DNA from: a virus
Direction: 5' to 3' (one strand)
IMG/VR virus record: IMGVR_UViG_3300020057_000029
Span: 91,224 to 155,223 of that record
DNA: 64,000 bases
In this document: positions 17,900 to 43,108 of the stretch, one piece after another
Layout of the letters: each line of letters begins with the position of its first letter
Numbering within the stretch: position 1 is the first letter of the stretch
Notes under the pieces: model-generated
Told to the model about the DNA's origin: nothing
The model's database searches: none
The model's input: the letters and a program-made list of their open reading frames with translations, nothing else
Translations under genes and position numbers: made by a program

Positions 17900-17900
17900 T

Positions 17901-18680
17901 ATGAGTGAAATCAATTACAAAGTAAAATACGAACAGATTAAGCTTAAGTTCATGAGCTCCGTAGATATGGCCTTCCGTCTTGGTTATGAAAATGGCCAAA
18001 AAGATTCTCAGACGGAAATGGCTGCTGGACAACAGCAAGCCGCTGAACAACAGGCTCAACAACAATCTAACGCTGAGGCAAATGGTTTTGGTGGCGGCGA
18101 GGGCGATGATTCCGATTCCGATGGAGATGGAATGGGCGATGCTCTTCCTGGTCAATCTGGGATGCCTGGTGAAGGCGACAGTGAAGACCCTAACCAAGAC
18201 CCCAATATGGGCGGTGCTGGACAGCCTGGACAGCCTGGACTAGATGGTTCTGAAGCTGATCCTGAAGCTGCTCCAGTTGATGGTTCTGAGCTGGATTCTC
18301 ACATTTCTCAACTCGAACAGATGACTATGGGAAAATCTGAAGTATCCGTAGAACAGCTCAAGAAATCTTTGATTGGAATCAAACGTTTCAAAGAGGCTCG
18401 CGACCTTCACAAGTCTATGAATGCCATCAAACAGATCGGCAATACCATGAAAAAATCTACAAAAAAACATGCTAAGAAAATGAGCGGTTTAAAACCCACA
18501 TTTAACGTAAACGCTAACAAACAAGCGGCTGCAAATCTTACCGACAAAGATAAAGCGGCAATCAATGGTCAAGAAAAAATCGTAGCAGATATCATGAAAT
18601 CTTGGGATGAACAAGACAAGAAATCTACCAAGAAGATCACTGACATCCTCAATATCGAAGGTTTGACAAAAAAAGAATAA
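17901..18680 (+). CDS. putative head-internal protein (acidic linker, K|S motifs)
   Basis: Follows portal; MGKSE, LKKS, LHKS, MKKS. Confidence 0.6.
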   Translation: MSEINYKVKYEQIKLKFMSSVDMAFRLGYENGQKDSQTEMAAGQQQAAEQQAQQQSNAEANGFGGGEGDDSDSDGDGMGDALPGQSGMPGEGDSEDPNQDPNMGGAGQPGQPGLDGSEADPEAAPVDGSELDSHISQLEQMTMGKSEVSVEQLKKSLIGIKRFKEARDLHKSMNAIKQIGNTMKKSTKKHAKKMSGLKPTFNVNANKQAAANLTDKDKAAINGQEKIVADIMKSWDEQDKKSTKKITDILNIEGLTKKE

Positions 18681-23542: not shown

Positions 23543-25561
23543 TTATTTTTTTTCAGACTTTTCCATGGTTTTAGGCCTATCGAACTCTTTTAGTTCGTGA
23601 ACGTGTCTTGGGTGTAATACGGCATCATCGTGTTCATTAATACCAAACTTAACATGTTTTCCAGAAAGGATTTTTCCATGTTGTTTGTTTGGCAAATGAT
23701 GCATTTCGCCGGTTGGTTTTTTGGCAAAATATTCACCACCACGAGAGATCACCTTGCCCGTATGAGGGTGCTCGGAATCGATTTTTTCAGACTTTTCCAT
23801 GGTTTTAGGCTTTTTGTAACATTCCTTATCTTCGCCAGTCATCATTGCATCAGAAAATTTCTTGAGCTCTTTTTCGGCTTCAACGCTTTTTTTCAAAATC
23901 ATAGTTTTGCCAAAAGAGTCTATTTCGCTTTTGGTCATGTTGGGCATTCGCTTCTTCATAAATTCTTGAAACTGTTCACGCTTGTCCCATTTAGAATATT
24001 CTTCTTCTGCGCGAATTAACCACTCGGACTTTGTTAGGTTGGGCTTCATTTGTCTGATGCGCTTCAAATTCTTATGAGCAATTTCTTTGGCTGTATAAAC
24101 GGTCTCGGAAGCAGCGCCATGACGAACCTTCTGGCCCATGTGGGACATTCCCATGCCAGCTTTTAGGCCAGGGCTCATTTTATTACCAGCTACCTTGTCG
24201 GATAGAGGTTTGTTAACATTATCCGTTTTCTTCATACTGCCCTTGCCGAACGGCGAACCGATTGCAGCATTAATTGTCGAAGTGCCGTTCGAGGTAGCGG
24301 TATTGCCTAGGCTCTGAGGAGGAGGAGGAGGCGGTGGTGGTGGCGCATCTACTTTGTGCATTTTTTTGTCGAGATGCTCTTTGGCGAGCGCAGCGCCGTC
24401 TGTTAACGCACCAGGCGAGCTCATTCCAGAACCTGCGGTCATCGCTTTTTCCATCTTTTGTTCGCCAGAATCATTTTTTGGCTGTTTTTGCACATTAGCA
24501 GATGGGTTCATTGCTTTACCCAATAGCTTTTTGCGCTTATCAGCCATTCCGGCCTCAAAACGATCATCTTTACGAGCAGATGTATGAGCGGCTTGTAAGT
24601 GAAGCTTCATGCGGTCAAGATGATGAGCTCCAGCTTTATGATCTTTGGTACCCTGAGAATGCTCAAAATGCATTTTAGCAGCTTCTTCATGATCTTTGGT
24701 AGAAAAACCACGATATTCGTGGATGCGCTGATGACTCATCACGTCTTTGCCTGAGCTAGTGCGACCCATGGTGTGACCAGGATCTCTAAAAGGTGTTTTG
24801 CCAAAGGTCTTTGCGCTGGCCTTTGGGGTGCCAATTGAAGCATTGGGTTTCTCGATACCTGCAGCAGATTTGTCAACTGAAGCTGGAGCTTGTGATGTCA
24901 TTTCTTTTTTCATGGGGGTGATTCCTAGCTTATTAGCATGATGATTCGGGTCTTCTGCCTTTTTTACATCGGCGAAAACATCGGACTTAAGAAGTTCAAT
25001 TTCTGCGTAAGGTACTGTTTTAAAAGACTGTTCTGATTTAAAAAAATCGGCGATATTATCGACTTTTTTAGTTTTTTCGGGCATTTCGGGCATTTTTTCA
25101 GCTATAGCCATTTTGTTACAATGGGACTCTGTTATGGTACATTTACGAGCAATAGATCTTGTAATTGTCATACCTTTTTTATCAAGCTTTGCGCCTTCAA
25201 TAGAGAAACCAACTACATTGTGTTCGTTAATACCTCTTTTCTCAGCATCGTATTGAAAAAGACCGGCTACGTGCAGACCAGACTCTGTATGGGTAAAGAG
25301 CTCACCCATAACGTAAACGTAGGGAACCTTGCATTTGTTCCAAAAATAGCGGTGTCTTTCGTTATCACAGTCTTCTAACTTAAAGATTTTCTTAGCTTTT
25401 AAGATCTTTCCAATAATTTGCATTGGGTAGTCTTTTTTATGCTCCCAATTGAAATTTCCGGTTTTGTCTAACGAGGAGATATCCATTCCTGCTACGGAAA
25501 TGATTTCGCCAGAAGAGTCTATGTTTTCAGAAGCTGCTATTCCGTCAATTAGGGTGGACAT
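23543..25561 (-). CDS. prohead (capsid maturation) protease with long low-complexity C-terminal extension
   Basis: IDGIAASENIDSSGEII, NWEH, GFSIEG; extension carries many [LMF]xK[SA] motifs and a poly-Pro tract. Confidence 0.82.
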   Translation of the reverse strand: MSTLIDGIAASENIDSSGEIISVAGMDISSLDKTGNFNWEHKKDYPMQIIGKILKAKKIFKLEDCDNERHRYFWNKCKVPYVYVMGELFTHTESGLHVAGLFQYDAEKRGINEHNVVGFSIEGAKLDKKGMTITRSIARKCTITESHCNKMAIAEKMPEMPEKTKKVDNIADFFKSEQSFKTVPYAEIELLKSDVFADVKKAEDPNHHANKLGITPMKKEMTSQAPASVDKSAAGIEKPNASIGTPKASAKTFGKTPFRDPGHTMGRTSSGKDVMSHQRIHEYRGFSTKDHEEAAKMHFEHSQGTKDHKAGAHHLDRMKLHLQAAHTSARKDDRFEAGMADKRKKLLGKAMNPSANVQKQPKNDSGEQKMEKAMTAGSGMSSPGALTDGAALAKEHLDKKMHKVDAPPPPPPPPPQSLGNTATSNGTSTINAAIGSPFGKGSMKKTDNVNKPLSDKVAGNKMSPGLKAGMGMSHMGQKVRHGAASETVYTAKEIAHKNLKRIRQMKPNLTKSEWLIRAEEEYSKWDKREQFQEFMKKRMPNMTKSEIDSFGKTMILKKSVEAEKELKKFSDAMMTGEDKECYKKPKTMEKSEKIDSEHPHTGKVISRGGEYFAKKPTGEMHHLPNKQHGKILSGKHVKFGINEHDDAVLHPRHVHELKEFDRPKTMEKSEKK

Positions 25562-26217: not shown

Positions 26218-26946
26218 ATGTATACAGAACAAGATCTTTCAAAAATGTTAGCGGAAGTGGAAAAAGAATTTGCTGGTGCTCTTGCTAAAGCTGAAGAAGA
26301 AAAATCTTCTCTAGCTAAGTCAGAAACTGCAAATGCCGATGCCGCTACCGAAGAGACTGCCAAAGTTGAAGAGAAATCTGCAACGGCGGAAATCGCTCTC
26401 GCTAAAAACGAAGACGAAGACGAAGATAAAGACGATTGCGATTACGACGACGAGGATCATGAAGAAATAGAGAAAATCTATAAGTCCATGTCCAAATCTG
26501 AACGTAAAGCACACTTGAATGCGCTCGGGAAATGTGGAGAAATGTCAATGAAAAAGTCCGAAAAAGACACTTTAGTTGAAATTGAAACCCCTATTGCTGA
26601 CGCTGGTAAAGAAATCGAACTTCTTAAGTCCGAATTTTCGACTAAACTTGCCGCTTCTGAAGCAAAAAGCGAAGAGTTAAAAAAGAATCTAGATGCCGTG
26701 TCAGAATTTTTGACCAGATTGGTTAAGAAAACTGCACCCCAAGGTAAGGGTATCACTAATCTCGACAGTATCGCCAAAAGCGATGTTGGCGCTGATGAAG
26801 AGAAGCCTTTGTCGAAGAGTGAAATTAGCACTCGTCTAGCTAAAAAAGCCGCTGAACCTACTTTGGCCAAGTCGGATAGAGAGGCTATCAATGCTTTCTA
26901 CCTACAAGGCGCAAATATTAACACTGTAAACCACTTACTCAAGTAA
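26218..26946 (+). CDS. capsid scaffolding protein
   Basis: Acidic coiled coil directly before the capsid gene, with about ten LxK[SAN] motifs. Confidence 0.7.
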   Translation: MYTEQDLSKMLAEVEKEFAGALAKAEEEKSSLAKSETANADAATEETAKVEEKSATAEIALAKNEDEDEDKDDCDYDDEDHEEIEKIYKSMSKSERKAHLNALGKCGEMSMKKSEKDTLVEIETPIADAGKEIELLKSEFSTKLAASEAKSEELKKNLDAVSEFLTRLVKKTAPQGKGITNLDSIAKSDVGADEEKPLSKSEISTRLAKKAAEPTLAKSDREAINAFYLQGANINTVNHLLK

Positions 26947-26977: not shown

Positions 26978-28363
26978 ATGATCGAACAACTTCAGTCACT
27001 TATGAAAGCTCTTGAGGCCGGTAGTTACAACGCCGCCCCAGGTCAGCTTGCGCAAGGTGCTGCTTTAATGGTGGAAGACCTTTCCCCAGTAATGCAAAAC
27101 GTAACGTTTGACGACAGCCATATCAAACTTCAAAAAATGCTAACTAGCAAAGATGTAAAAGCTACAATGCATCAATTCAACCGTCAACTTGACTATGGAA
27201 TCTTCGGTGGTTCTGCTCAATTTGAAGGCGGCATTGGTGAAGAAGATACCTCGAACTACGTTCGTGCTATCGTTCCCATGGCCTATTACAGCACGACTCG
27301 TCGTGTTTCTGTTGCTGCTAACCTCATCGGTGCTTTCGACGGCGTAAAAGCTGAAGACCGTGCTGCTGCTGACGCTGCAATGAAACTTGCTGGCGATATC
27401 GAATTCGACTGCTTCCGTGGTCAATCCGATTTCTCAAACGCTGGTGTGTTTGACGGTAACCCTCTCGCTGTAGCGAAAGTGCCCAATATGATTGGACTTG
27501 ACCAACAAGTTCGTCAGTCGGACGCTCAACAAAATACGCAAGATCTTATGTTTGCTGAGTACGGCTCAGACCAAACTGTAGTACTCTCTGCTGGTGGCGC
27601 TCTAACCCAGTCCATCATCGAAGATTCCGCAGTTCGTAGCTCTATGAACATGGGTAATGCTGATAAGCTCGTTCTCGATCCTATCAGTCTCTCTGCATAT
27701 AACAAGATCGCCCACGCTAAAGAACGTATCATGCTCGCTGGCTCTGCTCAAGAAGCTTCCGGCGCTCACTTACGTACTCAGTGGACCTCTTCGGCTATCG
27801 TATCACTTGAAGCTTCGCGCTTCTTGAGTGGTAAGACTCGTCCTGCTCGCGCTCGCGCATCAGCTCTCGCTGGTCCCGCTATCGCTGCTGCTGACGCTGG
27901 TGCCGCTGGTTCGCTCTTGGCCGCTGCTGCATACGTATACTATGCTACTGCTGTTAATGAACGTGGCGAAAGTACTCCTGGTGCATCTAGTTCTGTAACC
28001 CCTGCTCTTGCTGGTAACAAGGTCAATGTGACCATTACTGCAGTAGCTGGAGCTAAGTACTACAACTTGTATCGATCTGCCGCTGGTGGAAATGCAGCTT
28101 CTGCAAAATTCATTGGCAAGATTGCACAAGGTTCTGGCAACCCTGTATTCGCGGATCTTGGTAACCGTTCCCCTGGTTCTGTTACTGGTTTCTTGATTCA
28201 AGGTAACACCATGGGTCTTGCTCAGTTGGCTCCATATAGCAAATTGAAATTGGCTGTTAGTGACCTCTCACTTCCTGAGGCACACTTCAGATTCCTTTCT
28301 CTTGCTGTATACCAACCTCGCAAAAACGTTCTGATCGAGAACATTGATGGTCAACTTAGCTAA
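26978..28363 (+). CDS. major capsid protein
   Basis: LMK|AL propeptide site, GAALMVEDL, IEFDCFRG; Twort/SPO1-type layout with Ig/Fn3-like insertion; strong RBS and terminator. Confidence 0.9.
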   Translation: MIEQLQSLMKALEAGSYNAAPGQLAQGAALMVEDLSPVMQNVTFDDSHIKLQKMLTSKDVKATMHQFNRQLDYGIFGGSAQFEGGIGEEDTSNYVRAIVPMAYYSTTRRVSVAANLIGAFDGVKAEDRAAADAAMKLAGDIEFDCFRGQSDFSNAGVFDGNPLAVAKVPNMIGLDQQVRQSDAQQNTQDLMFAEYGSDQTVVLSAGGALTQSIIEDSAVRSSMNMGNADKLVLDPISLSAYNKIAHAKERIMLAGSAQEASGAHLRTQWTSSAIVSLEASRFLSGKTRPARARASALAGPAIAAADAGAAGSLLAAAAYVYYATAVNERGESTPGASSSVTPALAGNKVNVTITAVAGAKYYNLYRSAAGGNAASAKFIGKIAQGSGNPVFADLGNRSPGSVTGFLIQGNTMGLAQLAPYSKLKLAVSDLSLPEAHFRFLSLAVYQPRKNVLIENIDGQLS

Positions 28364-28389: not shown

Positions 28390-28438
28390 AAAAAAAGAAA
28401 AGCCACTTGTTTAATTACAGGTGGCTTTTTCTTTTTTT
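28390..28438 (+). terminator. rho-independent terminator (probably bidirectional)
   Basis: AAAAGCCACTTGT-loop-ACAGGTGGCTTTT with A and T tracts. Confidence 0.85.
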
Positions 28439-28522: not shown

Positions 28523-30226
28523 ATGAAGGATAAAATATCAGAACTGTATAAAAAAGGTGTGAAAACATCAGATATAGCCATGGTTCTAAGGAAAACGCCT
28601 CAAAGAATTAATCAAGTGCTGATAGAGCTTGGCTTAAAGCAAAAAACGTTTGACTATTCGCCAAAAATAACTGCTATCATTGCTGAAAGCATTCTTGCTT
28701 TTAATAGAGATGGTCTGACCGTAACTGAAATATCAAAAAGGGTTGATCTAACAACCACTGGAATCAGAAATTTTCTTAAAAAACGTAGTATTTCAACAAA
28801 CGCATCCAAAGAAGACAGGTCTAGGCCTTGTGTTGTTTGTAAATTAGTGTTCACTCCGAAACACTCAGATGGGGTGAAAAAAAACAAATACAAGACTTGC
28901 TCTGTCGAATGTCGCTCTAAGCACGCTAGTGAATACAGAACGAAATATACAAAAGATGATATCGATAAGGTTTTAGAGCTAAAAAAGGCCAATACTGCCA
29001 ATGATGAGATTTGCCTGGCAACAGGGGTAAATATAAATAAGATCAAAGAGGTGATCAAAGAAAATGCCTTGTTTTTGGACCCAAAAGTGGCTCAAAAGAA
29101 TGCTTATGAAGCTAAGCTAAAAAAGAATACTCGTTCTATGGAAGAGATGCGAGCTTATTACGGAAAAATAGCCGTATCAGAAGAAAGTCTTGAAAAAACA
29201 AAAACAATTCTTTTGGAAAGGGGTTTTGAATATATAGATGGTTTTGAGGGCAAAAGCAATCCTTTTAAAATCAAATGTCTAGTCTGCAATAATATCAGAA
29301 CTACACATAGGATAAACAATGTGGTCAAAAACGCCTGTATGTTCTGTTCTGGATGTAAAAAAACTTCCAAAGCCGAAATAGAAATTGGGGCATGGGTAAA
29401 CTCTTTAAAGATAAAGGCTGAAAAATTCAAGTTTGAATACCGAAAAGATGGTGGCGAAATAGATGTTTTTGTTCCCCTTGTAAAGGTGGGAATAGAATAC
29501 TGTGGTCTTTATTGGCATAACGAAAATAGCCCAACCTCAAGAGGGGTGGATTATCATTTCAACAAAATGAAAAAGGCTAACAAAGAAGGTATTCGCCTAA
29601 TAACCATTTTCGAAGACGAATGGCTCAATAAAAAAGATCAAATTAAAGGATTTTTACGATCTGTTCTTAATAAAAATGAAATAAGGCTTTTTGCCAGAAA
29701 AACAGATTTGAGAGAGGTGCCTAAAAAAGAGGCCTCTCTTTTCTTAGAGGAAAATCATATCCAGGGTTCTTCTCAAATCGAATCGGCTTTTGGCCTTTAT
29801 TACAACGAAGAGCTTGTTGGTATTGTAACTGGCAACAAACATCACAGACAGGGAATGAAAAATCAATTCATACTGAATCGATTGGCCTTTAAAACAAACG
29901 TAAGTGTGGCTGGTGGTTCGTCTCGGCTTCTTAAGGCGCTAATTGGTTATGCTAAAAAGAATGGCTATTTAAAACTAGTCTCGTGGTCAGACAATAGGTG
30001 GTCCGAAGGTAATGTTTACGAAAAACTAGGGTTTGTATTGGAAGAAACCCTTGGCCCAGACTATTCTTACGTAGTTGGCCAAAAAAGAATCTCCAAGCAA
30101 TCTTGTACCAAGGAAAACTTGCTCAAAAAAGGAGCCATTGGTAACACAGAAAAAGAAATGGCCCTCAGTTTAGGATATAGCAGAATATGGGATTGTGGCA
30201 AAAAACGCTGGACCTTCGCCTTGTAG
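28523..30226 (+). CDS. Hef-like homing endonuclease, second copy (HTH/Zn-finger N-terminus)
   Basis: EIDVF...GIEYCGLYWH; C-terminal half highly similar to the 10962 gene. Confidence 0.8.
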   Translation: MKDKISELYKKGVKTSDIAMVLRKTPQRINQVLIELGLKQKTFDYSPKITAIIAESILAFNRDGLTVTEISKRVDLTTTGIRNFLKKRSISTNASKEDRSRPCVVCKLVFTPKHSDGVKKNKYKTCSVECRSKHASEYRTKYTKDDIDKVLELKKANTANDEICLATGVNINKIKEVIKENALFLDPKVAQKNAYEAKLKKNTRSMEEMRAYYGKIAVSEESLEKTKTILLERGFEYIDGFEGKSNPFKIKCLVCNNIRTTHRINNVVKNACMFCSGCKKTSKAEIEIGAWVNSLKIKAEKFKFEYRKDGGEIDVFVPLVKVGIEYCGLYWHNENSPTSRGVDYHFNKMKKANKEGIRLITIFEDEWLNKKDQIKGFLRSVLNKNEIRLFARKTDLREVPKKEASLFLEENHIQGSSQIESAFGLYYNEELVGIVTGNKHHRQGMKNQFILNRLAFKTNVSVAGGSSRLLKALIGYAKKNGYLKLVSWSDNRWSEGNVYEKLGFVLEETLGPDYSYVVGQKRISKQSCTKENLLKKGAIGNTEKEMALSLGYSRIWDCGKKRWTFAL

Positions 30227-32496: not shown

Positions 32497-33324
32497 ATGT
32501 TTTTCCCTCAAAGTAAATCTCCACAAACCGCAATATACCCAGTTCACTGCAAAGAGGCTTCTGGATTATTGCGCCGTTGCGAACCCTTTTTGACTCCAAC
32601 CCAATTGAAGAATCGGTTTTTGCTGGGCATTCCCTTAAAATTCGCCAACGACGATGTCTTAACGGACGAGATCCTAAAAGACCGTATTCATTTGGCAATG
32701 AACGAAGTAGAGCTTCTTTTGAATATTACCATTACCAGAGAAGCCTTTCAAGACAAGCTTCCTTTTGACTATCAGCTCTACAAAGCGTATATTAATCTAG
32801 TGTCAGAAAAAGGACCAATTATTAGTATTGAAAGTCTTGCTATCACAAGCGCTGACTTCAATAATATTTTCACAATTCCACCTGATTGGATCGAAACTTC
32901 AAATTTTTCAAAACGTCTTGTTAACGTGATCCCTCTATTGGCTGCCTATGGCGTAAACACCGTTCAGGGTGCAGTCGGAAATGCCGGTATAGCTTTTTTG
33001 GCCGTGATGGGTGGTTTGAGCTGGGTTCCTGCTTATTGGCAAATCAATTATACCGCAGGTCTTTCTAACAAAGAAGGTCAGGTGCCAGTACCAGTAAACG
33101 AGCTTATTGGGGTAGTAGCTGCTCTAAACACCCTTAGTCTTATCGCGCCTTCAAATATCTATAATAGCCAATCGCTATCTCAAGATGGCATCTCACAGTC
33201 TTCGTCTGGTCTTGGACCTCGTTTGTACGAACTGAGAATTTCTGAACTTGAGAGAAAAAAAGAAGAGCTAACCAGAAAGCTCAAGGCTATCTTTTTCAGC
33301 AGGATAATATTCGGGAACATATAA
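32497..33324 (+). CDS. neck / head-tail adaptor protein
   Basis: RFLLGIPL, INYTAG, SQSLSQDGISQS pattern of myovirus adaptors; position. Confidence 0.65.
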   Translation: MFFPQSKSPQTAIYPVHCKEASGLLRRCEPFLTPTQLKNRFLLGIPLKFANDDVLTDEILKDRIHLAMNEVELLLNITITREAFQDKLPFDYQLYKAYINLVSEKGPIISIESLAITSADFNNIFTIPPDWIETSNFSKRLVNVIPLLAAYGVNTVQGAVGNAGIAFLAVMGGLSWVPAYWQINYTAGLSNKEGQVPVPVNELIGVVAALNTLSLIAPSNIYNSQSLSQDGISQSSSGLGPRLYELRISELERKKEELTRKLKAIFFSRIIFGNI

Positions 33325-34370
33325 TGGGTTTAAGTAAATTTTTGCTACAATCTATGTCAGAGCACAAGGATAAGGTCAAAGGGCCTCATTTCCTGTTTTC
33401 TGCAGAGAACCCTCGTTTTCCGCAAAAAACTACGCTAAGCCACGAAGACGTTGTAAAACATCTAAAAGGTGCGGGTTTTGATGCGCACGAAGTGAATGGT
33501 CATTATGGATCTCCCGAGCGCAGCATTGCTGTTTATGGCGTGAGTAAGGTTCAGGGAGAAGAGCTTCACGACATGGCTTCCCGTTTAGGTCAAGATAGCT
33601 CTATTTATTCCAATGGTAAACAGCACGAAATGCGCTTTCATCATGGAGAAAATGCTGGCAAAGCCCATTATGGAGAAGGCACTAAGTGGCATTTGCAAAA
33701 GCCAGCAGACTATTTTACCACCCTTCCTGGCGGACATCACCATTTTACCCATGATTTCAAATTTGACACCTTACACCCAGCGGGCCAGTTACACAATGTT
33801 CACGAGATGCTTGGTAAGCAAGTTTCTGCAGAGCACAAAACCGCTCAAGAAGCTGTTGCTTCGCCTTTAAACCAAAAACTTGAGAGTGATCATGACACCA
33901 ATATGAAAGGTATCAAGGATGGTCTTAAGGACGACATAAAGAAAAACGAACAAGAGCGTATAAAACTTGTTCATTTTTCCTCTCAAGGCGATCTAAAACA
34001 TATTGACCCTAATTTCAAACAAACTGGGGTAGACGCTGGAAAAAAGGGCAGAGATACTTTTCATCCTCACTCATTCTATTACGTAGAGGGCACTGAACCT
34101 GAACAGATCGTTGTGAGTCAAAGCCGTCACAAATATAAGACCAGCATAAACCCTGCTGAAAAACCTGTATACGATCTCGGTCATGATCCAAAAGGTGTGG
34201 TCGATGAAGCAATTAAGGAAAACCAGGGCGTTTTAAACATGGACATGGTTCATGAAAAATTAAAAGATGCTGGGTTTCACGGATTTAGAAACTCAAAACA
34301 CCCTAGTCTATCTAATGTGGTCGGAATGTATCATCCTTTGGCAGTGGAGCATCATGAACAAATCAGATAA
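33324..34370 (+). CDS. two-domain putative head cargo (DUF3293-like N-domain + possible ART-fold domain)
   Basis: FSAENP...GHYGSPERS...LGQDS; then KLVHFS...SFYY...GFHGF. Confidence 0.5.
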   Translation: MGLSKFLLQSMSEHKDKVKGPHFLFSAENPRFPQKTTLSHEDVVKHLKGAGFDAHEVNGHYGSPERSIAVYGVSKVQGEELHDMASRLGQDSSIYSNGKQHEMRFHHGENAGKAHYGEGTKWHLQKPADYFTTLPGGHHHFTHDFKFDTLHPAGQLHNVHEMLGKQVSAEHKTAQEAVASPLNQKLESDHDTNMKGIKDGLKDDIKKNEQERIKLVHFSSQGDLKHIDPNFKQTGVDAGKKGRDTFHPHSFYYVEGTEPEQIVVSQSRHKYKTSINPAEKPVYDLGHDPKGVVDEAIKENQGVLNMDMVHEKLKDAGFHGFRNSKHPSLSNVVGMYHPLAVEHHEQIR

Positions 34371-35442
34371 AACAGAAAATTTGGGTCAGGGCGTACACGA
34401 AGGGTATCAGCAACGCGCTAAACAGGGCGGCGATGTTCTGTTCCATGTAAAGCTTAAGGGTAGAACTTATCTTACGAACGACATACCTCTTCACATGTCC
34501 TTGAAGGTGTTTTCCAACAAGGATGAAATGGACCTAGCTGAAATTAAAGCCAAGGTTAAAGAGTTTGACATCAAGGCTCCAGATCCTAAAAATCTTAAAT
34601 TTAAAACAACTATTTTTACCTCAGAAAATGATGGTAAAGAATATTTCATGCTTTTGTGTGAAGGTTGTCCTGATAATTATGAAAAATTCTACCATTCTTT
34701 TGGCAACAAAGGAACTCGTTATAAAAATTTCATGTCCCATGTGACCATTGACAAGCTATTGTACGATGCGATCAATGAAGACGGCGTAAAAGCTGAAGAG
34801 ATCGAATTTAGCCCTCTCACTGTTGAGCATGGTGCTGACAATACTGTGCATATTTTTGAAGACAGTCTAGAAAAGTCTGAAGAGCTTCTTGAAAAAGGCA
34901 GTATGAAGCATTTAGCTTCTGCTTTGATTATGAGCACGGCCCTTGCTGGCGGATCTCACACTGCTCATGCTCCTAAAACACCATCTGCAATCCATCAAGA
35001 ACCTGAATACACACCAGCAAGAATGCTTGCTAGTATTTCTGATGTAGAAAGCTCTGGCGGAAAAGATACTAAACACGAAGCTCTTCCTGAGGGCGGGATA
35101 CATCGTGGTGAAAAAGCTTATGGAAAATACGGACTAACACCTGTTGTTATACGCGAAACAATACATATGCACAAAGACCTTGCGACAAAACATAAAAAAG
35201 CCTTAAACCTGCGTGGACAAGACATGTCTAACTATATGCAAGACAACCCTGAATTAGAAGACACGATTGCTCAGAAGCATTTACAAAGACTTGAACATCA
35301 TTTTGGTCCAAAACCAGACGTTCTGGGCTATGCGTGGTTACAGGGAATTACTGGGACAAACAAGGCTCTGAAAACAAAAGAAGATATTAAAAGTCATTGG
35401 CATGTCAAAAAAATTAGAGATGCCTATCTAAGGGGTAAGTAA
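34354..35442 (+). CDS. 2H phosphodiesterase (Acb1-like) fused to lysozyme/lytic transglycosylase-like domain
   Basis: HMSL (34492) and HVTI (34738) 82 aa apart; ISDVESSGG...AYGKYGL; start re-called to 34354 (GGAG RBS). Confidence 0.65.
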   Translation: MNKSDKTENLGQGVHEGYQQRAKQGGDVLFHVKLKGRTYLTNDIPLHMSLKVFSNKDEMDLAEIKAKVKEFDIKAPDPKNLKFKTTIFTSENDGKEYFMLLCEGCPDNYEKFYHSFGNKGTRYKNFMSHVTIDKLLYDAINEDGVKAEEIEFSPLTVEHGADNTVHIFEDSLEKSEELLEKGSMKHLASALIMSTALAGGSHTAHAPKTPSAIHQEPEYTPARMLASISDVESSGGKDTKHEALPEGGIHRGEKAYGKYGLTPVVIRETIHMHKDLATKHKKALNLRGQDMSNYMQDNPELEDTIAQKHLQRLEHHFGPKPDVLGYAWLQGITGTNKALKTKEDIKSHWHVKKIRDAYLRGK

Positions 35443-35948
35443 TGGATATTAAAGCTGATGAAATATTGAGCGTAGAAGAAGCTGGAATGCTGGACAAACA
35501 TCCTGTAAAAATGCTTCGCACAAAAGGTGGGTTTTGGATTGCCGTAGGTAGGCCAAAAGGAAAGCACAAGGATGAGGCGATTGGGGCAGGCAGTCACCCT
35601 GCTATCGTAAGGTACAACCTCGAAAAACAGTATCCAGCCTTTGAACCTGCCCTTATGAAGAGCGAAATGTTCAATGACTCTGCTATCGTAGATAAACATT
35701 CCCATTTTCTTTCTGATGAATTGCGTAAATCTGGTTACGATGTTTACTCCGTTCAAGACGGCAAAGAAATAGAATTTCACGTAACCAAGCTCAATGCCTA
35801 TGTTGCTACCGTAAAAGGCCAGCTACAGTCAGATGCGTTGGTTTTTAAAGTATTAGAAATGCCTAAAGAATTTACCAGAGCTATTGCTGGAGCGGCAACC
35901 GAAAAAGCCCTATCTTGTAATACGCCCAAAATCCGCATCGAGAAATAA
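35442..35948 (+). CDS. hypothetical virion-associated protein
   Basis: Operon coupling; LMKSE. Confidence 0.7.
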   Translation: MDIKADEILSVEEAGMLDKHPVKMLRTKGGFWIAVGRPKGKHKDEAIGAGSHPAIVRYNLEKQYPAFEPALMKSEMFNDSAIVDKHSHFLSDELRKSGYDVYSVQDGKEIEFHVTKLNAYVATVKGQLQSDALVFKVLEMPKEFTRAIAGAATEKALSCNTPKIRIEK

Positions 35949-35949
35949 T

Positions 35950-36324
35950 ATGAGCGTAAAGATCTTTTATTCTAAAAAAATCGCTACTTACGATCCAGAT
36001 AAGCCCTTGCAGCATCAGTTGAAAGGTTGCAAAAAGGTCGTAATAGAATACGAACCTAAAGATTCTTCCATCGATAGGTTTATTGATGAAATTGAACAAC
36101 TTTGTGATAAAAACAATAGCACTGTCTTAAACATAAATTTGGTTCATAACGACTTTATAGCTGGTGCTAAGTTAAAAAAACGCGTAAAAAAATTAGAAAC
36201 AAATACCTCTGTAAACACGCTTATAAAAATGATGGCGTCTGGGTATTCAGAAACAGATAAGAAACTGGAGCAAATTGCTTCTATCTGTACAGAGGGTGAC
36301 TGCAATGGCAAAGAGAAAGCCTAA
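35950..36324 (+). CDS. hypothetical protein
   Basis: Start re-called to ATG 35950. Confidence 0.65.
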   Translation: MSVKIFYSKKIATYDPDKPLQHQLKGCKKVVIEYEPKDSSIDRFIDEIEQLCDKNNSTVLNINLVHNDFIAGAKLKKRVKKLETNTSVNTLIKMMASGYSETDKKLEQIASICTEGDCNGKEKA

Positions 36325-37249
36325 CGGAATTCAGGCAGATACTATCAATCGATATAGCCCGTTTACTCAACTCTCTTTTGATTTGAAGAGACAGGATGTT
36401 TTCGTTACCAGTTTTGCTATTGATTTCTTGCATTACAAGGCTATGCCTAGCCCTATAGGCAAAAAAGATAGAGGCGACTATCGCCGCCAAGATGGCGTAG
36501 ATACGATCACGTCTAATGGTATGATTTATAAATGCTCTGGTGTTTTCTCAGCCACAATGGTGGATAATGAGCGTAAACAGAGAAAAGGCGACATCGGCAC
36601 TTTAGACCCTTCGACTGGTAGAATCATCATGCCTCGTTTTTACAACAAAGACGGTACCAAAGGCAACTTGGCAGATGGCAAACGTATCTATTTGGCACCA
36701 GGAGATCGGCTTTACATAGCAGATCCAGTTGCTGACGTGAAAGTAGAAAATTACCAGGAAATGGACTATGAGCCTGGAATCGACAATGAAGCAAAATTTG
36801 CCATTGTGGAACTAGCGCTTCCTATTGTGGATAGCCGAAACATCGAATATACAGAAAATGTAGATTTTTCAATCACTTGCGATGGAAACGTCCGATGGCT
36901 TGATAGTGGAAAAAATCCTGGTATTGATCCAACTACTGGAAAGGGTAGGATTTATTCAATTCGCTACCGATACAAGGCTTATTGGTATGTAACCATGATA
37001 CCAAAAGAAGTTCGGGTGACCAATGTTACTACGGATGGCATTAGATCTCCCGAAAGAATGGCTTATCATGCGGTTATCACTCGGGAATATATGTATCATA
37101 ATCAGAACAAGGGTGATGCTGTAAACCAGCTTGAGTCTAAAGATCCCAAAAGGGCTCAAAGCGAACCAGTTCGGTCGATTACTCCAAATAAGTTTGTTGT
37201 ACCCGTAGACATGAGCGCTATTGGCGAAGAAAATAGCGACGAAGACTAA
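36305..37249 (+). CDS. putative head-closure/neck protein
   Basis: Start ATG 36305 (GAGG RBS); position; YSIRY motif. Confidence 0.55.
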   Translation: MAKRKPNGIQADTINRYSPFTQLSFDLKRQDVFVTSFAIDFLHYKAMPSPIGKKDRGDYRRQDGVDTITSNGMIYKCSGVFSATMVDNERKQRKGDIGTLDPSTGRIIMPRFYNKDGTKGNLADGKRIYLAPGDRLYIADPVADVKVENYQEMDYEPGIDNEAKFAIVELALPIVDSRNIEYTENVDFSITCDGNVRWLDSGKNPGIDPTTGKGRIYSIRYRYKAYWYVTMIPKEVRVTNVTTDGIRSPERMAYHAVITREYMYHNQNKGDAVNQLESKDPKRAQSEPVRSITPNKFVVPVDMSAIGEENSDED

Positions 37250-37254
37250 TCTTT
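37247..37254 (+). promoter_or_regulatory. late promoter box
   Basis: TAATCTTT. Confidence 0.65.
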
Positions 37255-37287
37255 AATGTGAACTAAGTATAAGGAATCAAATCATTT

Positions 37288-37737
37288 ATGGCAGCTAAAA
37301 ATATCAGAAATGTACAAGGCAAAAAAGTAGAAGATGTTCCTGTAATCGCGAACAATATCTACAACAATGCTGCGGGTGCTCAAAAAAATGCTGAAGTGGG
37401 CAGATTTCTTGTCCCATTAAACATTGATGGATCAACTTATACCACAGATGCCACCACCGCCCGCAGACTTCCTTCTAAGGGTCGCAACGTCGCTGTGTAC
37501 AACAACAGTGGGGTTGTTCACTCTATAACTGCTGGCGATAGAGATGTTGCTGCCATGGTGGCGCTCGCGATAGGCGTTGTGGACAATGCCACCAGACGTG
37601 TAGGTATTGCTTGTCCTCCAAACGCATGGACTTATGTTGCTCTGTACGAACAACAAGATGTAATTTCCGACAATGCAGCTCTTCTTGTATATCTAATCGA
37701 AGACGACACTTTTATCAAACAAGAAGCTTCCAGATAA
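37288..37737 (+). CDS. putative virion protein
   Basis: AAGGA RBS, late box. Confidence 0.7.
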   Translation: MAAKNIRNVQGKKVEDVPVIANNIYNNAAGAQKNAEVGRFLVPLNIDGSTYTTDATTARRLPSKGRNVAVYNNSGVVHSITAGDRDVAAMVALAIGVVDNATRRVGIACPPNAWTYVALYEQQDVISDNAALLVYLIEDDTFIKQEASR

Positions 37738-37746
37738 GGGGATTCA

Positions 37747-38880
37747 ATGTCTTTCGGCAACTCCTTTCTTAAAAAAGCGTTAGGCGAAGATTTTTTTGAA
37801 TCTTTGCAAAAAGTTGAGCTTTATAAGCAAGGCACTCGCACGACCGTAGATCCAGAGGAAATTGCCACGGCCCTTCAGATTGTACCAAGAACCTTGATGG
37901 CGTTTTTGGTGAACACTCTTTCTCCTTTAAAGGTAGGAGACAACAAAAGAATTCAGCTCCCTCTTCAAGAATCTGGCGTATTCCTCAATGCCACCAAGCT
38001 GGAGCGCGACGTTTATATTGGCAATATTGAGCAAGCCGGTAAGATTGTGACTGAGTATAAATTCAGATCCATTCCAGGGATTGGACTTATTATCATGTCA
38101 GCTTACGAGCTCTATGATATTAATAAGTTGATAGAGCCTCCAAAAGTGGAGGAAGACGTTGCCTCCAAAGTGCAACATATGATCAATGAACGTCTTGCTA
38201 TACATGATATAGTTGGTCAGGTGGTCGATAAGACTATGGCTGAACGTGAAGCGCTAAACAAGCTCATGCTCATGAAACTGACCAATGAGCTCAATGCTAC
38301 TAGGGAAGAATTAGAACGTGAAAGAGTAAGGCTTGCTGGCTGTGCCGTTGCTGCTCATGGTGGTGTAAAGCCTGGAGAACTCCAACCTGGTGACTACGGA
38401 CACTCTGCATCTTTGGACGATGTTCTACATCTTCGTGAAAAAAACGAGAAGTTTAAAAAAGACATTGCTAACGTGGCCAGAGTTTTTTCGGAAGATCCTG
38501 CTTCTAAAAGCGATGAGTATTTACGCGGCTTGGCCAACGGAATTGCTGTTGTTGATGCTACCATAAATGATAAGGAACCAGAATTCGTGGATGCACCCAA
38601 AAAAGGCTCTCAAAAACTAAAAAACTTTGTAGAGCGCCGAAAACAGCCTCAAGAATTTTCTATTCAAATGGCCAAAGGTGAGCAAGTTGATTGCCCTGAT
38701 TGTGGCAAAAACATCTTTGATGGCACTGTATTTTCTGGCTGTATTTGCTTTGGCGATGATCGCGAGCGCAAGGTTTTTGTTAGGAAAAGTGATACCGGAA
38801 TCAATGTGCGTTTCTCTAAAGGCTTTGATCCTGAAAATATCGAAATGCTTCTAGATATTCTTAGGAGAAAACATGGATAA
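37747..38880 (+). CDS. hypothetical protein with coiled coil and C-terminal Zn ribbon
   Basis: CPDCG...CIC; LKKA, MAKG. Confidence 0.7.
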   Translation: MSFGNSFLKKALGEDFFESLQKVELYKQGTRTTVDPEEIATALQIVPRTLMAFLVNTLSPLKVGDNKRIQLPLQESGVFLNATKLERDVYIGNIEQAGKIVTEYKFRSIPGIGLIIMSAYELYDINKLIEPPKVEEDVASKVQHMINERLAIHDIVGQVVDKTMAEREALNKLMLMKLTNELNATREELERERVRLAGCAVAAHGGVKPGELQPGDYGHSASLDDVLHLREKNEKFKKDIANVARVFSEDPASKSDEYLRGLANGIAVVDATINDKEPEFVDAPKKGSQKLKNFVERRKQPQEFSIQMAKGEQVDCPDCGKNIFDGTVFSGCICFGDDRERKVFVRKSDTGINVRFSKGFDPENIEMLLDILRRKHG

Positions 38881-40549
38881 TATATTTTTAGCAATGGACG
38901 CAGATAACGCAGGAAGAATGGTCGGAAGAGCCGTTCTTGCTAACGATGTTGCTGCTCTTACCGAAGTAAGCTCCAGAATCGATCTGGGACAAGAAATCAT
39001 CGCCAGGTGGGTTCAAGAACAGGGCGGAAAAAAGATTTCTGCTGGAGGAGATGAGTTCACAGCCCAGATGCCGCCTGGTTCTATTGAAACGATTGAAGAA
39101 CTTCGGAAGGACTATCAATTTGCTACGAATCTAACAATGACCGTTGGCGTAGGCAAAGATTTGTCCCAAGCTGGCAAGTCTCTTATGGCCGGAAAACTAC
39201 GTGGTAAAAATATCGTAGTGATATTCGATGAAACCGTTGATTCTGAATTGCAGTCCGCACATCTACATGCTGGAGACGGAACTGGATCGGAAGAAGAAAA
39301 CAAGCTAGACGAAGCGTATCTTAGCGATGGTCAACAAAACGAGCAGGGAGAGGACGCCGCCAATGATGGTCAGGGCGAATTCTCTGATGGTAAAAATCAT
39401 GATAGCGAAGCCAATCGTGAGGCAAAGGGCGATGATGTTGGGCCTGGTTCTACTGAAGAAAGCCCAGGAGAGGGCGTTGAGCCTACCGCTACAGATCAAC
39501 AAGCTGAACAAAATGATCAACAAGCACAATTTAACACAGATGGTGAAGAGCCTGGTCCAACCGACCCAAAAGCTCAATCCAATCCCAAAACCGAAGGTGC
39601 GGAAAAGCTAGAGGAAAAATCTATGAACGATAAATCTAACGGAAACAGTGTAAAACCAAAAAACAAGGAGATCGTAAATGAAGGCTCTAAAGAAAAAGAT
39701 CCAAAAGCAGGTCAAGAAAATGTTGACAAGCTTAAAGAAAAAATTGATGAAGCCAGCCCCGAAAGCCAAAGCCAAGAAAAAGATGTAATGGAAAATATTG
39801 ACGATGCAGATCTTGCAACTGGCCATGCCGATGGAAAAGGGGTGGATGACAAAGACTCCGACCAAACTCCTGGTGACATGGGCCTAGGCGATGAAGCAGA
39901 AGCTGGGGCTGAAGAAGGTGTTGATCCTCAAGATCCTAGTGCTTCTGAAGAAGAAGGCGAAGAAGATCTTAATCCAGATCAGCTTCCTGGCGAAGACAAA
40001 GAAGACCCTGACTACAAAGAAGTTCTTGGTGACGCGATTGCCTCTGAACAAGAAAACATTCAAAAAGAAAAAGTCGTACAGATGGTAGCTGAAGCCCTAG
40101 AAGTCTTCAAAAGTCAGCGCCATATTTTGGAACGAGCTAAAGAACAAGCCCCTGAGCTCTATAACGGCTCGATCAAAATGCTTCGCGCAATGATTGAAAT
40201 GTCAAAATTGCTTGGTTTTGGCGATGGGCTAGAAGATCCTGAACACGATGCTCAGCAAAATGGCGCTGACTCCCTGTTTGGCAATGACGAAGACATGCCT
40301 GCCGATGACGAAGATATGCTTGCCGATGACGAAGATATGCTTGCCGATGACAAACCTTTCTTGGATGGTTCTGATTCTGAAGAAGGTGCGGAAGATAAAG
40401 AGAAGCCTGCTAGCAAACCTGAATTTCCTCCTAAGAAAGATGGTAAATCTGCTAAACCCGACGTTTCACCAGACGCTAAAGGAAAACCTAGTTTCCCCCC
40501 TAAAAAACCAGAAGGAAAACCTGCTGGAAAAAAGCCAGCGGGGCAATAG
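38873..40549 (+). CDS. mCpol (minimal Cas10/GGDD-type) nucleotide cyclase domain protein with long acidic tail
   Basis: FLAMDADNAG, ND, ISAGGDEF, TVGVG, AGKLRGKN within the first ~118 aa. Confidence 0.75.
   Translation: MDNIFLAMDADNAGRMVGRAVLANDVAALTEVSSRIDLGQEIIARWVQEQGGKKISAGGDEFTAQMPPGSIETIEELRKDYQFATNLTMTVGVGKDLSQAGKSLMAGKLRGKNIVVIFDETVDSELQSAHLHAGDGTGSEEENKLDEAYLSDGQQNEQGEDAANDGQGEFSDGKNHDSEANREAKGDDVGPGSTEESPGEGVEPTATDQQAEQNDQQAQFNTDGEEPGPTDPKAQSNPKTEGAEKLEEKSMNDKSNGNSVKPKNKEIVNEGSKEKDPKAGQENVDKLKEKIDEASPESQSQEKDVMENIDDADLATGHADGKGVDDKDSDQTPGDMGLGDEAEAGAEEGVDPQDPSASEEEGEEDLNPDQLPGEDKEDPDYKEVLGDAIASEQENIQKEKVVQMVAEALEVFKSQRHILERAKEQAPELYNGSIKMLRAMIEMSKLLGFGDGLEDPEHDAQQNGADSLFGNDEDMPADDEDMLADDEDMLADDKPFLDGSDSEEGAEDKEKPASKPEFPPKKDGKSAKPDVSPDAKGKPSFPPKKPEGKPAGKKPAGQ
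40284..40351 (+). repeat. 21-bp coding tandem repeat x3 (DDEDM[PL]A)
   Basis: gatgacgaagatatgcttgcc units. Confidence 0.85.
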
Positions 40550-40562
40550 GTAGCCCCATTGG
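40513..40562 (+). other. programmed -1 ribosomal frameshift signal
   Basis: AGGA SD-like, in-phase A_AAA_AAG at 40528-40534, stem GGGGC/GCCCC 5 nt downstream; -1 frame open to 40761. Confidence 0.72.
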
Positions 40563-40744
40563 AAAACTACCGACCAAGCAAACCACCTCTCACGTAGCGC
40601 GTGAAACGTTGCCACCTGGAGCGATTAACGCTAAAGGGCAGCAAAAGGTTATCGACCCTGTTACTGGTAAAACCAGATTTATAGACAGGAAAGCCGGTGT
40701 AGTAATGAGTTCCACCGGAGTCCCTGTAAAATCGGGAGGCGTGA

Positions 40745-41497
40745 ATGGCTCTCAAAATTAACTTAGATCTTGATAAGATAGCGGATCATTTCAAGGAGCT
40801 AGCCTACGAAGTAAAACAAGATTTAGAAAAAGGCGTTGGCAGCTTAGCTGCAATGACCCATGCTAGAGTTGCTGAGATAGCCAGTAGCGAATTGAATTCT
40901 TCTAGAAAAGAGTTTCAAGAATCTCTTGGTTTTGAAGAGATATCTCCTGGCGTTTGGGTTGTAAGCGTAGATGAAAAAGGTCTATGGGTAGAAGAAGGTA
41001 TTAAGCCTAATACGGATATGAAGGAAGGCCTTCTACGAGAAGGCGCAAAAACATCGAAGGATGGCTATAAGTACAAGTCGATTCCTTTTGATCACGGCAA
41101 AGCTCCTTCGCAGATGACACCCTATGCTAAAACGCTAGTAAGTCAGATCCGATATGTTTTAAAAAAAGAAGGTATTTCTTTTAAGAAGATTGAGAATGGT
41201 CCTAATGGGAATCCTAGGCTTGGTAAATTACACAAGCTAGACATTGATTCTATGCCACCAACCTCTCGGGCAAACACTGGAGCTCTACAGGGCCTAACGA
41301 TCTATCAAAGCAAAAATGCGGCTGGCAATGTTAGACGAGACATAATGACTTTTAGAACGGTTAGTGACGGTCCTAAGGGTCAAGGTAAATGGATTCACCC
41401 TGGAATGCAGGCTAAGAAGTTTTTAGACAGAGCAGCAGAATGGGCTTTAAAAGAATGGGAAGAAAAAATTCTTCCAGAGATATTAAAGAAATATTAA
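40745..41497 (+). CDS. neck/tail completion protein (HK97 gp10-like)
   Basis: MTFRTVSD...WIHPG motif; position. Confidence 0.65.
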   Translation: MALKINLDLDKIADHFKELAYEVKQDLEKGVGSLAAMTHARVAEIASSELNSSRKEFQESLGFEEISPGVWVVSVDEKGLWVEEGIKPNTDMKEGLLREGAKTSKDGYKYKSIPFDHGKAPSQMTPYAKTLVSQIRYVLKKEGISFKKIENGPNGNPRLGKLHKLDIDSMPPTSRANTGALQGLTIYQSKNAAGNVRRDIMTFRTVSDGPKGQGKWIHPGMQAKKFLDRAAEWALKEWEEKILPEILKKY

Positions 41498-42601: not shown

Positions 42602-43108
42602 ATGATGAAACACTACACCGCAAAACAAGTAGCTCTAGAAGTCTTGAAAAAAGCAGACGAATGTCTTAAGAAGTCTGAAATGCTCAAGAAAGAGCATGTT
42701 GAAAAAGACGCCACTCCTCCAAACGGTGTTAGAGCCCAAATAGCTCCTGAAAAGAATCCTAAAGAAAAGAAGGAAGAAAAAGGAACTGATCCTACTGGGA
42801 TGGCGGACTATGATGACAAGCGTTTAAAAAAATCCGAAGGTTTTTCTGGTTTAGCTAAGTTTTTAGAAGATAAAAAATCAAAACGTATGTCTAAAGGCGA
42901 AACCGGACATGAAAAAGGAATAAATACTTCTACTGATCCTTCGCAAAAAAGCAAGGTAATGATGGGAACCAGTAAAGCTGGATCTAGCTTACCAGGCGCT
43001 TCAAACAGCCCTGCTAAAAAAATAGCAGACGAAAATGAGGCTAAAGGCAAACACAAACAGGTGCTTGGCGAAATGAAGCAAATGCCTAAACCAAAGTTGC
43101 CGGTGTAG
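42602..43108 (+). CDS. putative head-internal low-complexity protein
   Basis: LKKA, LKKS x2, MSKG motifs. Confidence 0.6.
   Translation: MMKHYTAKQVALEVLKKADECLKKSEMLKKEHVEKDATPPNGVRAQIAPEKNPKEKKEEKGTDPTGMADYDDKRLKKSEGFSGLAKFLEDKKSKRMSKGETGHEKGINTSTDPSQKSKVMMGTSKAGSSLPGASNSPAKKIADENEAKGKHKQVLGEMKQMPKPKLPV

Follow-up and report, generated by a model that had tools for sequence, protein, structure and literature searches.

What are a cyclic-nucleotide synthase and a phosphodiesterase doing among the head and neck genes of a virus? The question is raised by positions 33324-40761 of a 64,000-nucleotide stretch of viral DNA (the window; positions 91,224 to 155,223 of IMG/VR record IMGVR_UViG_3300020057_000029), where an initial annotation had placed an mCpol-type cyclase, a 2H phosphodiesterase and a possible ADP-ribosyltransferase (ART)-fold domain, and had interpreted them as a new virion-associated system that writes and erases cyclic nucleotides. 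Our analysis favors, with a probability of roughly 55%, a reading in which the enzymes are packed in the capsid, cleaved at Lys-Ser-Glu (KSE) sites and injected with the DNA, the tail of the mCpol protein being dosed by a ribosomal frameshift. Late, virion-delivered enzymes are what we infer from the conserved placement in a structural block, synteny with a polyvalent protein of Myxococcus phage Mx1, shared KSE motifs, the fusion of one enzyme to a transglycosylase, a separate probable endolysin gene and the frameshift. This much of the virion-associated module survives, whereas the notion of writer and eraser as a single system is not supported.

The window is the final 64 kb of a 155-kb viral contig whose completeness is rated 96%. 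The major capsid protein (26978-28363) shares 54% identity with its counterpart in Mx1, the sole cultured relative of the source virus, which is an uncultured Mx1-like myovirus. Searches of isolated phages with the window DNA and proteins, the mCpol protein and its 70-residue tail gave no match, and the capsid protein alone provided the link to Mx1. Recognizable genes include those for the portal (16028), the major capsid protein (26978) and the tail sheath (43405). The last two flank the candidate module, confirming its placement among late head-to-tail genes, and the plus-strand, often overlapping gene run between them contains the entire 33324-40761 interval. We regard these genes, which are co-oriented with the virion genes, as late and probably co-transcribed with them, because the single strong plus-strand terminator (28397-28430) directly follows the capsid gene and no strong one occurs from 28430 to the sheath gene. 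The cargo genes, the structural-block genes that follow them and the mCpol gene are arranged as follows.

33324..34370, plus strand: two-domain cargo protein of 348 amino acids (aa); SAM-lyase-like domain aa 12-146 (nt 33357-33761) and ART-like domain aa 210-348 (nt 33951-34367)
34354..35442, plus strand: 2H-transglycosylase protein; 2H domain aa 24-169 (nt 34423-34860) and transglycosylase domain aa 218-362 (nt 35005-35439)
34492-34500 and 34738-34746, plus strand: 2H motifs HMS (H47-M-S49) and HVT (H129-V-T131), invariant in 21 relatives
35442..35948, plus strand: conserved structural-block protein of 168 aa, with homologs in almost every related locus; MMKSE-type site at aa 73-75 (nt 35658-35666)
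36275-37249, 37288-37737 and 37747-38880, plus strand: three conserved structural-block genes between the variable slot and the mCpol gene, in an order shared by some 40 loci and, in part, by Mx1
38873..39247, plus strand: mCpol domain, aa 1-125; DxD at aa 9-11 and GGDEF at aa 58-62 (nt 39044-39058)
39248..40549, plus strand: rest of the mCpol protein; linker aa 126-383, helical segment aa 384-448 (nt 40022-40216), Lys/Pro-rich tail and stop codon TAG at 40547-40549

The cyclase identified at 38873 is borne out. Residues 5-118 of the 38873-40549 product match the Pfam mCpol family (PF18182) with 37.5 bits against a cut-off of 26.4, a six-frame scan for the same family yields 41.2 bits, and a profile built from 20 relatives aligns with the Panoptes enzyme OptS, whose structure is solved (9mnr, 9nwn), over the whole domain with an E-value of 1.6e-10. 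In OptS, D6 and D57 are catalytic and S30 favors adenine (PMC12657218, PMC12657230). The corresponding phage residues D9, D60 and S33 are invariant in the 20-relative alignment. Across 177 family members, the loop reads GGDE in 160, GGDQ in 13 and AGDE in one, and is missing from three (GGD[EQ] in 173/177). The catalytic centre thus looks intact and active, the head is, as judged from these alignments, under purifying selection, and ATP is probably its substrate. With both Asp residues and both HxS/T motifs of the 2H domain intact by sequence, neither enzyme appears catalytically dead. An exhaustive search recovered at least 756 clusters of mCpol proteins (50% identity; E up to 0.001). Of the 756 representatives, the best 150 are nearly all long proteins (350-990 aa) that carry the domain at or near the N-terminus. 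The N-terminal extensions of distant members contain no Pfam domain and show no similarity to 2H or SAM-lyase-like domains, and no direct 2H-mCpol fusion was found.

The phage domain therefore resembles Panoptes OptS as a single palm domain of about 120 aa with an end-to-end profile match, both catalytic Asp residues and the adenine-favoring Ser. Unlike OptS, it resides in a late structural block, is fused to a tail of about 430 aa and has a 3' end recoded by a probable frameshift. It also has a literal GGDEF loop, which according to the Panoptes paper is nearly absent from the Kp and Vn OptS proteins. Furthermore, no 2TM-beta (OptE) or CARF-TM partner was found, the gene neighbors being conserved structural-block genes. 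Scans of the phage genome for PF18153 (Cap15-type), SAVED, CARF and GGDEF domains returned none, the PF18153 and SAVED controls being silent in every genome.

The 2H phosphodiesterase also holds, with 34354 as the likely start codon. Pfam returns no match for either part of the 34354-35442 protein. Its AlphaFold2 (AF2) model (pLDDT 84) features two domains and a disordered linker, with a low-pLDDT stretch at residues 171-213. The modeled N-terminal domain (residues 25-169) superimposes on the 2',5'-phosphodiesterase of rotavirus VP3 with Z 9.3 and a root-mean-square deviation of 3.5 Å over 130 aligned residues, and on CPDase, Usb1 and LigT with Z 8-9. Acb1, which the initial annotation mentions, is a poorer match: Foldseek gives an E-value of 0.06 for 7t27, which falls outside the 50 best VIA matches, and a profile search of solved-structure sequences with the 2H domain found no sequence link to Acb1 or other viral 2H phosphodiesterases. 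On the strength of the model, the domain is a member of the 2H superfamily, and the matches do not establish an Acb1-type assignment. It shares with the viral 2H phosphodiesterases (T4 Acb1, rotavirus VP3 and the poxvirus cGAMP phosphodiesterase; 10.1101/2025.08.21.671373) the fold and two invariant HxS/T motifs, and its nearest solved structures are viral 2H phosphodiesterases. Unlike them, it is fused to a lytic transglycosylase and lacks a sequence-level relationship.

The modeled residues 218-362 align with the lytic transglycosylases Cj0843 (Z 12.3) and Slt70 (Z 11.5). This places the domain in family 1, with its goose-lysozyme-like fold. The catalytic Glu of the E-S motif is positioned like E478 of Slt70, 13 residues from the start of the aligned range, and the VESSGG motif is kept in those relatives that have the domain. 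In the Mx1 polyvalent protein, residues 1078-1210 share 30% identity with the C-terminal half of the window protein. The SLT-type domain, the catalytic Glu-Ser pair and the setting among virion genes are reminiscent of the ejection proteins T7 gp16 and cyanophage A4 gp28 (PMC12002296). These are podovirus core proteins, whereas here the virus is a myovirus and the SLT domain is joined to a cytoplasmic-type enzyme. A role of the fused transglycosylase as endolysin was set aside, since a standalone SLT-domain reading frame of 142 aa (69 bits) exists elsewhere in the genome, on the minus strand outside the window (G000:C1:43248-43553), and is probably the phage endolysin. The linker after the KSE motif (34882-35004) includes a hydrophobic stretch of about 17 residues directly before the transglycosylase, which could be a membrane or signal-anchor segment.

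For the gene upstream, the possible ART-fold domain received support at the level of the fold and is unproven beyond it. The AF2 model of 33324-34370 (pLDDT 80) contains two domains separated by a disordered linker. The matches of residues 210-348 (Z 5-7) are all to ART-fold proteins, including MbcT (7.0), ParT (6.2), diphtheria toxin (5.8), NatT, PARPs and Tpt1, together with a domain of a cyanophage A4 pre-ejectosome protein in the same range. H217, S219, Y253 and E260 are invariant in homologs. A profile comparison of this domain with the ART-PolyVal domain of Mx1 was negative, and profile searches of solved-structure sequences with the Pfam-negative cargo domains gave nothing or spurious PPR matches. 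A PF18760 match on one homolog was rejected as a signature of the ART-like domain, as it belongs to an extra inserted domain.

The N-terminal half of the same protein, absent from the initial annotation, is SAM-lyase-like according to its model. Residues 12-146 match the S-adenosylmethionine (SAM) lyase of phage T3 with a Foldseek probability of 1.0 (8bb1) and a VIA Z of 9.1 (7ock). PF23780 (SAM lyase) is precomputed on several homologs, the 33324-34370 protein itself having no Pfam match, and the N-terminal domain is 35% identical to part of Mx1 WNM70344. In contrast to the T3 enzyme, with which it shares the fold and, in homologs, PF23780, the domain is fused to an ART-like domain here and to 2H-transglycosylase, GNAT or other domains in relatives.

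Are these enzymes part of the structural block or incidental passengers? Some 40 related viral loci share one gene order: a homolog of the gene at 32497, a variable slot, homologs of 35442, 35884, 36275, 37288 and 37747, the mCpol protein, and homologs of 40745 and 41499. The 36275-37249 product has a weak match to phrog_1004, a virion structural protein. The slot ranges from empty to 4.5 kb, and when filled it usually holds a transglycosylase with differing N-terminal heads, of which 2H is one of several. In three loci (L026, L017, L029) the first slot gene encodes about 330 aa with a match to REase_MTES_1575 (PF18741) below the cut-off; this would be a further alternative cargo. In Mx1, the slot is occupied by a 1479-aa polyvalent protein with GNAT, ART-PolyVal, NUDIX and transglycosylase-like domains, followed by a PI3/4-kinase-like protein. 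The window phage has an arrangement of the same polyvalent kind, with SAM-lyase-like and ART-like domains in one polypeptide and 2H and SLT domains in another, both between the capsid and sheath genes.

The second line of evidence is a tripeptide. Two further genes are needed to follow it.

23543..25561, minus strand: prohead protease; HK97/S78-like domain aa 1-175 (nt 25037-25561) and a long C-terminal extension with 5 KSE
26218..26946, plus strand: scaffold-like acidic protein, directly upstream of the major capsid gene; 6 KSE sites

The 23543-25561 product is 36% identical to the 'putative prohead protease' of Mx1, and its modeled protease domain matches Peptidase_S78 clusters with a TM-score of 0.64-0.76 in an Atlas structure search. 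KSE occurs 25 times genome-wide, and 11 of these occurrences lie in the protease and the scaffold-like protein, where composition alone predicts 0.54 and 0.43, respectively. Other orders of the same three residues are not enriched in either protein. The context is [LM]-x(0,1)-K-S-E, and the first KSE of the protease falls at the very end of the protease domain. Elsewhere, the motif marks the start of the disordered linker between the 2H and transglycosylase domains (nt 34873-34881), is invariant among the homologs of 35442-35948 (36 of 36 have it at the corresponding position), and occurs twice in 42602-43108. In relatives it occupies the linker that joins the SAM-lyase-like domain to the ART-like one and precedes 2H domains that have an N-terminal extension; in the four close relatives whose mCpol protein is extended at the N-terminus, it lies directly ahead of the mCpol domain. 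In Mx1, the counterpart of the scaffold-like protein has three KSE sites, and the polyvalent protein has them at positions 309, 608 and 1253, all interdomain.

Prohead proteases of phages T4 and phiKZ cleave at sites with Glu at P1. Because KSE fits such a site, its distribution suggests that the motif is the cleavage site of the prohead protease and that the cargo resides in the capsid. If so, KSE would offer a simple sequence rule for predicting the capsid cargo of Mx1-like phages. The protease tags described in the initial annotation are thus present in the 2H/transglycosylase linker and in 35442-35948, and absent from the mCpol protein and 33324-34370, though relatives have the motif in both.

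The third line of evidence comes from the 3' end of the mCpol gene.

40528-40534, plus strand: phased slippery heptamer A_AAA_AAG, with a conserved 70-aa extension in the -1 frame reaching 40761

The zero frame terminates at the TAG codon, after which a 70-aa conserved coding stretch continues in the -1 frame; this frame, uninterrupted from 40504 to 40761, extends beyond the point where the next gene begins (40745). The heptamer, which is that of dnaX, is phased with the zero frame and sits 13 nt before the stop. In some relatives, the same 70-aa stretch is the in-frame C-terminus of the mCpol protein. Of 38 related loci, 17 have such an in-frame tail, 14 encode it in the -1 frame and seven in the +1 frame. 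It is the best-conserved segment, with a mean column identity of 59%. It matches the Mx1 ortholog weakly (E 0.01), and a profile search with it returned no matches. Each of the 13 distinct genes of the -1 class has, 6-30 nt upstream of its stop codon, a phased X_XXY_YYZ heptamer (CCCAAA[AG] in 12 of them; background 0.08 per 20 codons), as compared with none of the five distinct +1-class genes. Most relatives have a Shine-Dalgarno (SD)-like GGAGG 9-12 nt upstream. The hairpin directly after the slippery site is not significant (z -0.97 versus shuffles). A quick tree places the -1 state at the base, with in-frame fusions having arisen several times.

The 3' end is probably a programmed -1 frameshift with short and long predicted isoforms. 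Such events are known from dnaX, the phage tail chaperones G/GT and T7 gene 10. Like these, the mCpol gene has a phased X_XXY_YYZ heptamer, an upstream SD-like element and a conserved C-terminal -1 extension. It differs in belonging to another gene family, with an mCpol head, in the insignificant downstream hairpin and in the +1 configuration of some relatives. It would represent a new conserved frameshift outside tail-chaperone and capsid genes. In the +1 class (L003, L014, L030/L032, L031/L036 and L039), the tail follows a conserved '..CC CCA CAG..' with an upstream AGGAGG and no phased heptamer, and in four of the five distinct genes the tail frame contains an ATG some 20 codons upstream. 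There the tail is possibly reached by a -2 or +1 shift, or by separate initiation.

What, then, is the core of this protein? The spacer (aa 126-383) is acidic and of low complexity, and its length varies among relatives. The helical segment (aa 384-448) is the only stretch that BLASTP aligns with the Mx1 ortholog (36% identity). An Atlas structure search with the C-terminal part was uninformative. Three related contigs forming one clade (L034, L037, L038) lack the mCpol head and keep the rest, and the Mx1 ortholog (33963-35369) has a head that has lost its catalytic residues. From these comparisons the C-terminal part is the conserved core and the cyclase a losable head.

These observations bear on a reading in which the mCpol head serves the phage itself, its product or a nucleotide-binding module controlling assembly, DNA-end handling or ejection while the basic frameshift tail anchors the protein at the portal, neck or DNA end. 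The position between neck-region genes is kept across a deep clade, the tail is better conserved than any other segment, frameshift dosing is typical of virion genes, and the phage scans, with their silent PF18153 and SAVED controls, found no receptor domain. On the other hand, the three headless relatives and the degenerate Mx1 head, with the rest of the protein retained, show that the cyclase is dispensable for the core role. Mx1 (L001) also encodes a 243-aa GGDEF-domain protein with an intact motif at 17173-17904, between the prohead protease and scaffold-like genes; an intact cyclase in the head gene cluster fits replaceable cargo. We consider the phage-serving role distinctly unlikely. 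The Mx1 protein may be a replacement for the degenerate mCpol, albeit in a single case. In many relatives (among P0004-P0015, L034, L037, L038), the spacer after the head contains four to eight DDCxYC/CxxC repeats, possibly metal-binding, and in the window protein this stretch is replaced by a Cys-free acidic region of low complexity.

In the virion-delivery reading, the variable slot would supply the SAM-lyase-like/ART-like protein and the 2H-transglycosylase fusion, and the structural-block protein would contribute an mCpol head, acidic spacer, helical segment and 70-aa tail, the last added to only some molecules by a -1 ribosomal frameshift. The cargo enzymes would be packed into the capsid, the prohead protease would cut them at KSE sites, and they would reach the host together with the DNA, in the manner of the P1 Dar proteins, T4 Alt and Aravind-type polyvalent proteins. 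The transglycosylase would then open the cell wall. The 2H enzyme would destroy host cyclic or 2'-5' oligonucleotide signals, or act on 2',3'-cyclic RNA ends; the SAM-lyase-like and ART-like domains would blunt SAM-dependent restriction and modify host targets; and mCpol would produce an adenine-based cyclic oligonucleotide and thereby disturb nucleotide signaling in the host.

Several observations weigh against this scheme. The mCpol protein and the 33324-34370 product of the window phage have no KSE, the latter showing KNE at the equivalent spot. The 2H subgroup and the ART match are resolved only at the level of the fold (Z 5-9), with no sequence link to solved structures. The active site of the Mx1 mCpol ortholog is degenerate and one clade lacks the domain, so that the core of the protein is not a cyclase. 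Finally, the hydrophobic segment before the transglycosylase could instead signify export in the infected cell. This last point is shared by a competing explanation, in which the products are made late, stay out of the virion and act as cytoplasmic or periplasmic enzymes in the producing cell, for example keeping cyclic-nucleotide abortive infection quiet until lysis, with the transglycosylase exported to help lysis. Late co-transcription is equally compatible with it. Against it stand the KSE motif common to the protease and scaffold-like protein and invariant in neighbors, the homology of the slot to the Mx1 polyvalent protein and the standalone SLT gene, and a frameshift-dosed tail points to assembly stoichiometry. 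We judge it unlikely, albeit the least so of the alternatives.

Does the cyclase work together with the phosphodiesterase? The initial annotation proposed to examine their co-occurrence across related phages. Among 27 distinct loci in which both slots are readable, 19 have mCpol and 2H, five have mCpol without 2H, three have neither and none has 2H alone. The three loci with neither (L034/37/38) form a single clade in a quick tree and lack the entire cargo slot, so their joint absence counts as one event. The loci that keep mCpol without 2H represent at least four lineages (L011/19; L030/32 with L041; L039; L042/43). Judged from these genomes, the pairing is common, not obligatory, and is largely explained by both being ancestral. 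Together with the 2H domain being one of several transglycosylase heads, this argues against writer and eraser as one system.

The same counts bear on the specific mechanism put forward in the initial annotation, namely that an injected 2H eraser is accompanied by a phage mCpol that replenishes the Panoptes decoy and keeps the membrane effector silent, mCpol acting as an antitoxin mimic. The idea has attractions. The phage domain is homologous to OptS over its full length and retains the D6 and D57 equivalents and the adenine-favoring Ser; the two enzymes occur together in most of the readable loci; and 2H enzymes such as Acb1 trigger Panoptes (PMC12657230; 10.1101/2025.08.21.671373). Against it, mCpol persists in the independent 2H-less lineages, and the sole joint absence is the single loss of the whole slot. 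The head is near-universal and highly conserved across related structural-block proteins, the best-conserved part in a family of at least 756 clusters, unlike a patchy counter-defense gene, and the phage scans, with their silent PF18153 and SAVED controls, found no Panoptes-type effector. Unless the two enzymes differ in specificity, making and degrading the same molecule would be futile, and no report of a phage-encoded mCpol was found in the literature searched. The adenine-type Ser is compatible with the model, which is possible on sequence grounds; nothing found specifically supports it, and we deem it quite improbable. Only slightly more credible, and still doubtful, is a broader version in which a large phage family injects a frameshift-dosed virion mCpol whose cyclic oligoadenylate mimics a Panoptes-type decoy or jams CARF/SAVED-type sensors.

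If it were true, viruses would write bacterial immune second messengers in addition to erasing or sponging them. Known phage counters to cyclic-nucleotide immunity destroy or sequester the signals, and a Panoptes/Cas10-lineage synthase in a structural-block protein would add writing to this repertoire. The phage mCpol would also provide a direct test of whether decoy-monitoring guard systems can be silenced by a viral copy of the cyclase. Mx1 resists the CBASS/type III CRISPR island of M. xanthus (PMC11506125). As Mx1 is cultivable, several of the predictions can be tested, though its own mCpol is degenerate.

How much of this is new? Iyer et al. (Iyer, Burroughs, Anand, de Souza and Aravind, 2017; PMC5512222) described polyvalent proteins encoded among virion genes and predicted to be packaged, listed 2H, ART, transglycosylase and GGDEF domains among their components, and proposed that 2H degrades host defense nucleotides while cyclases interfere with host nucleotide signaling. 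To speak of a new system was therefore an overstatement, packaged 2H and GGDEF domains having already been predicted. As with polyvalent proteins, P1 Dar and T4 Alt, the effector enzymes sit among virion genes and belong to a type for which packaging in the head and injection are known or predicted; the Mx1 counterpart of the cargo slot is a classic polyvalent protein. Unlike in the 2017 examples, several smaller genes share the domains between them, cleavage is proposed to fall to the prohead protease, acting at KSE, in place of a built-in metallopeptidase, and the cyclase is an mCpol (unmentioned in PMC5512222) on a separate conserved protein. The general idea is known. What is new is the mCpol family in a putative packaged-effector role, its seat on a conserved, probably frameshifted structural-block protein, and the candidate KSE rule.

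Some minor features of the genome remain. No tRNA genes were found in the window. Directly after the capsid gene and its terminator lies a 567-aa HNH/homing-endonuclease-like gene (28523-30226; phrog_3339, E 2e-90), followed by a metallophosphoesterase-like gene and a minus-strand thymidylate-kinase-like gene; this trio interrupts the structural block. Genome matches are limited to bins of metagenome-assembled genomes (MAGs) of a bog Deltaproteobacterium and a Flavobacteriaceae bacterium. Relatives of the mCpol protein are encoded by two contigs (L048, L050) binned into a Stordalen-type bog 'Deltaproteobacteria' MAG, which hints weakly at the host and is consistent with Mx1 infecting a myxobacterium.

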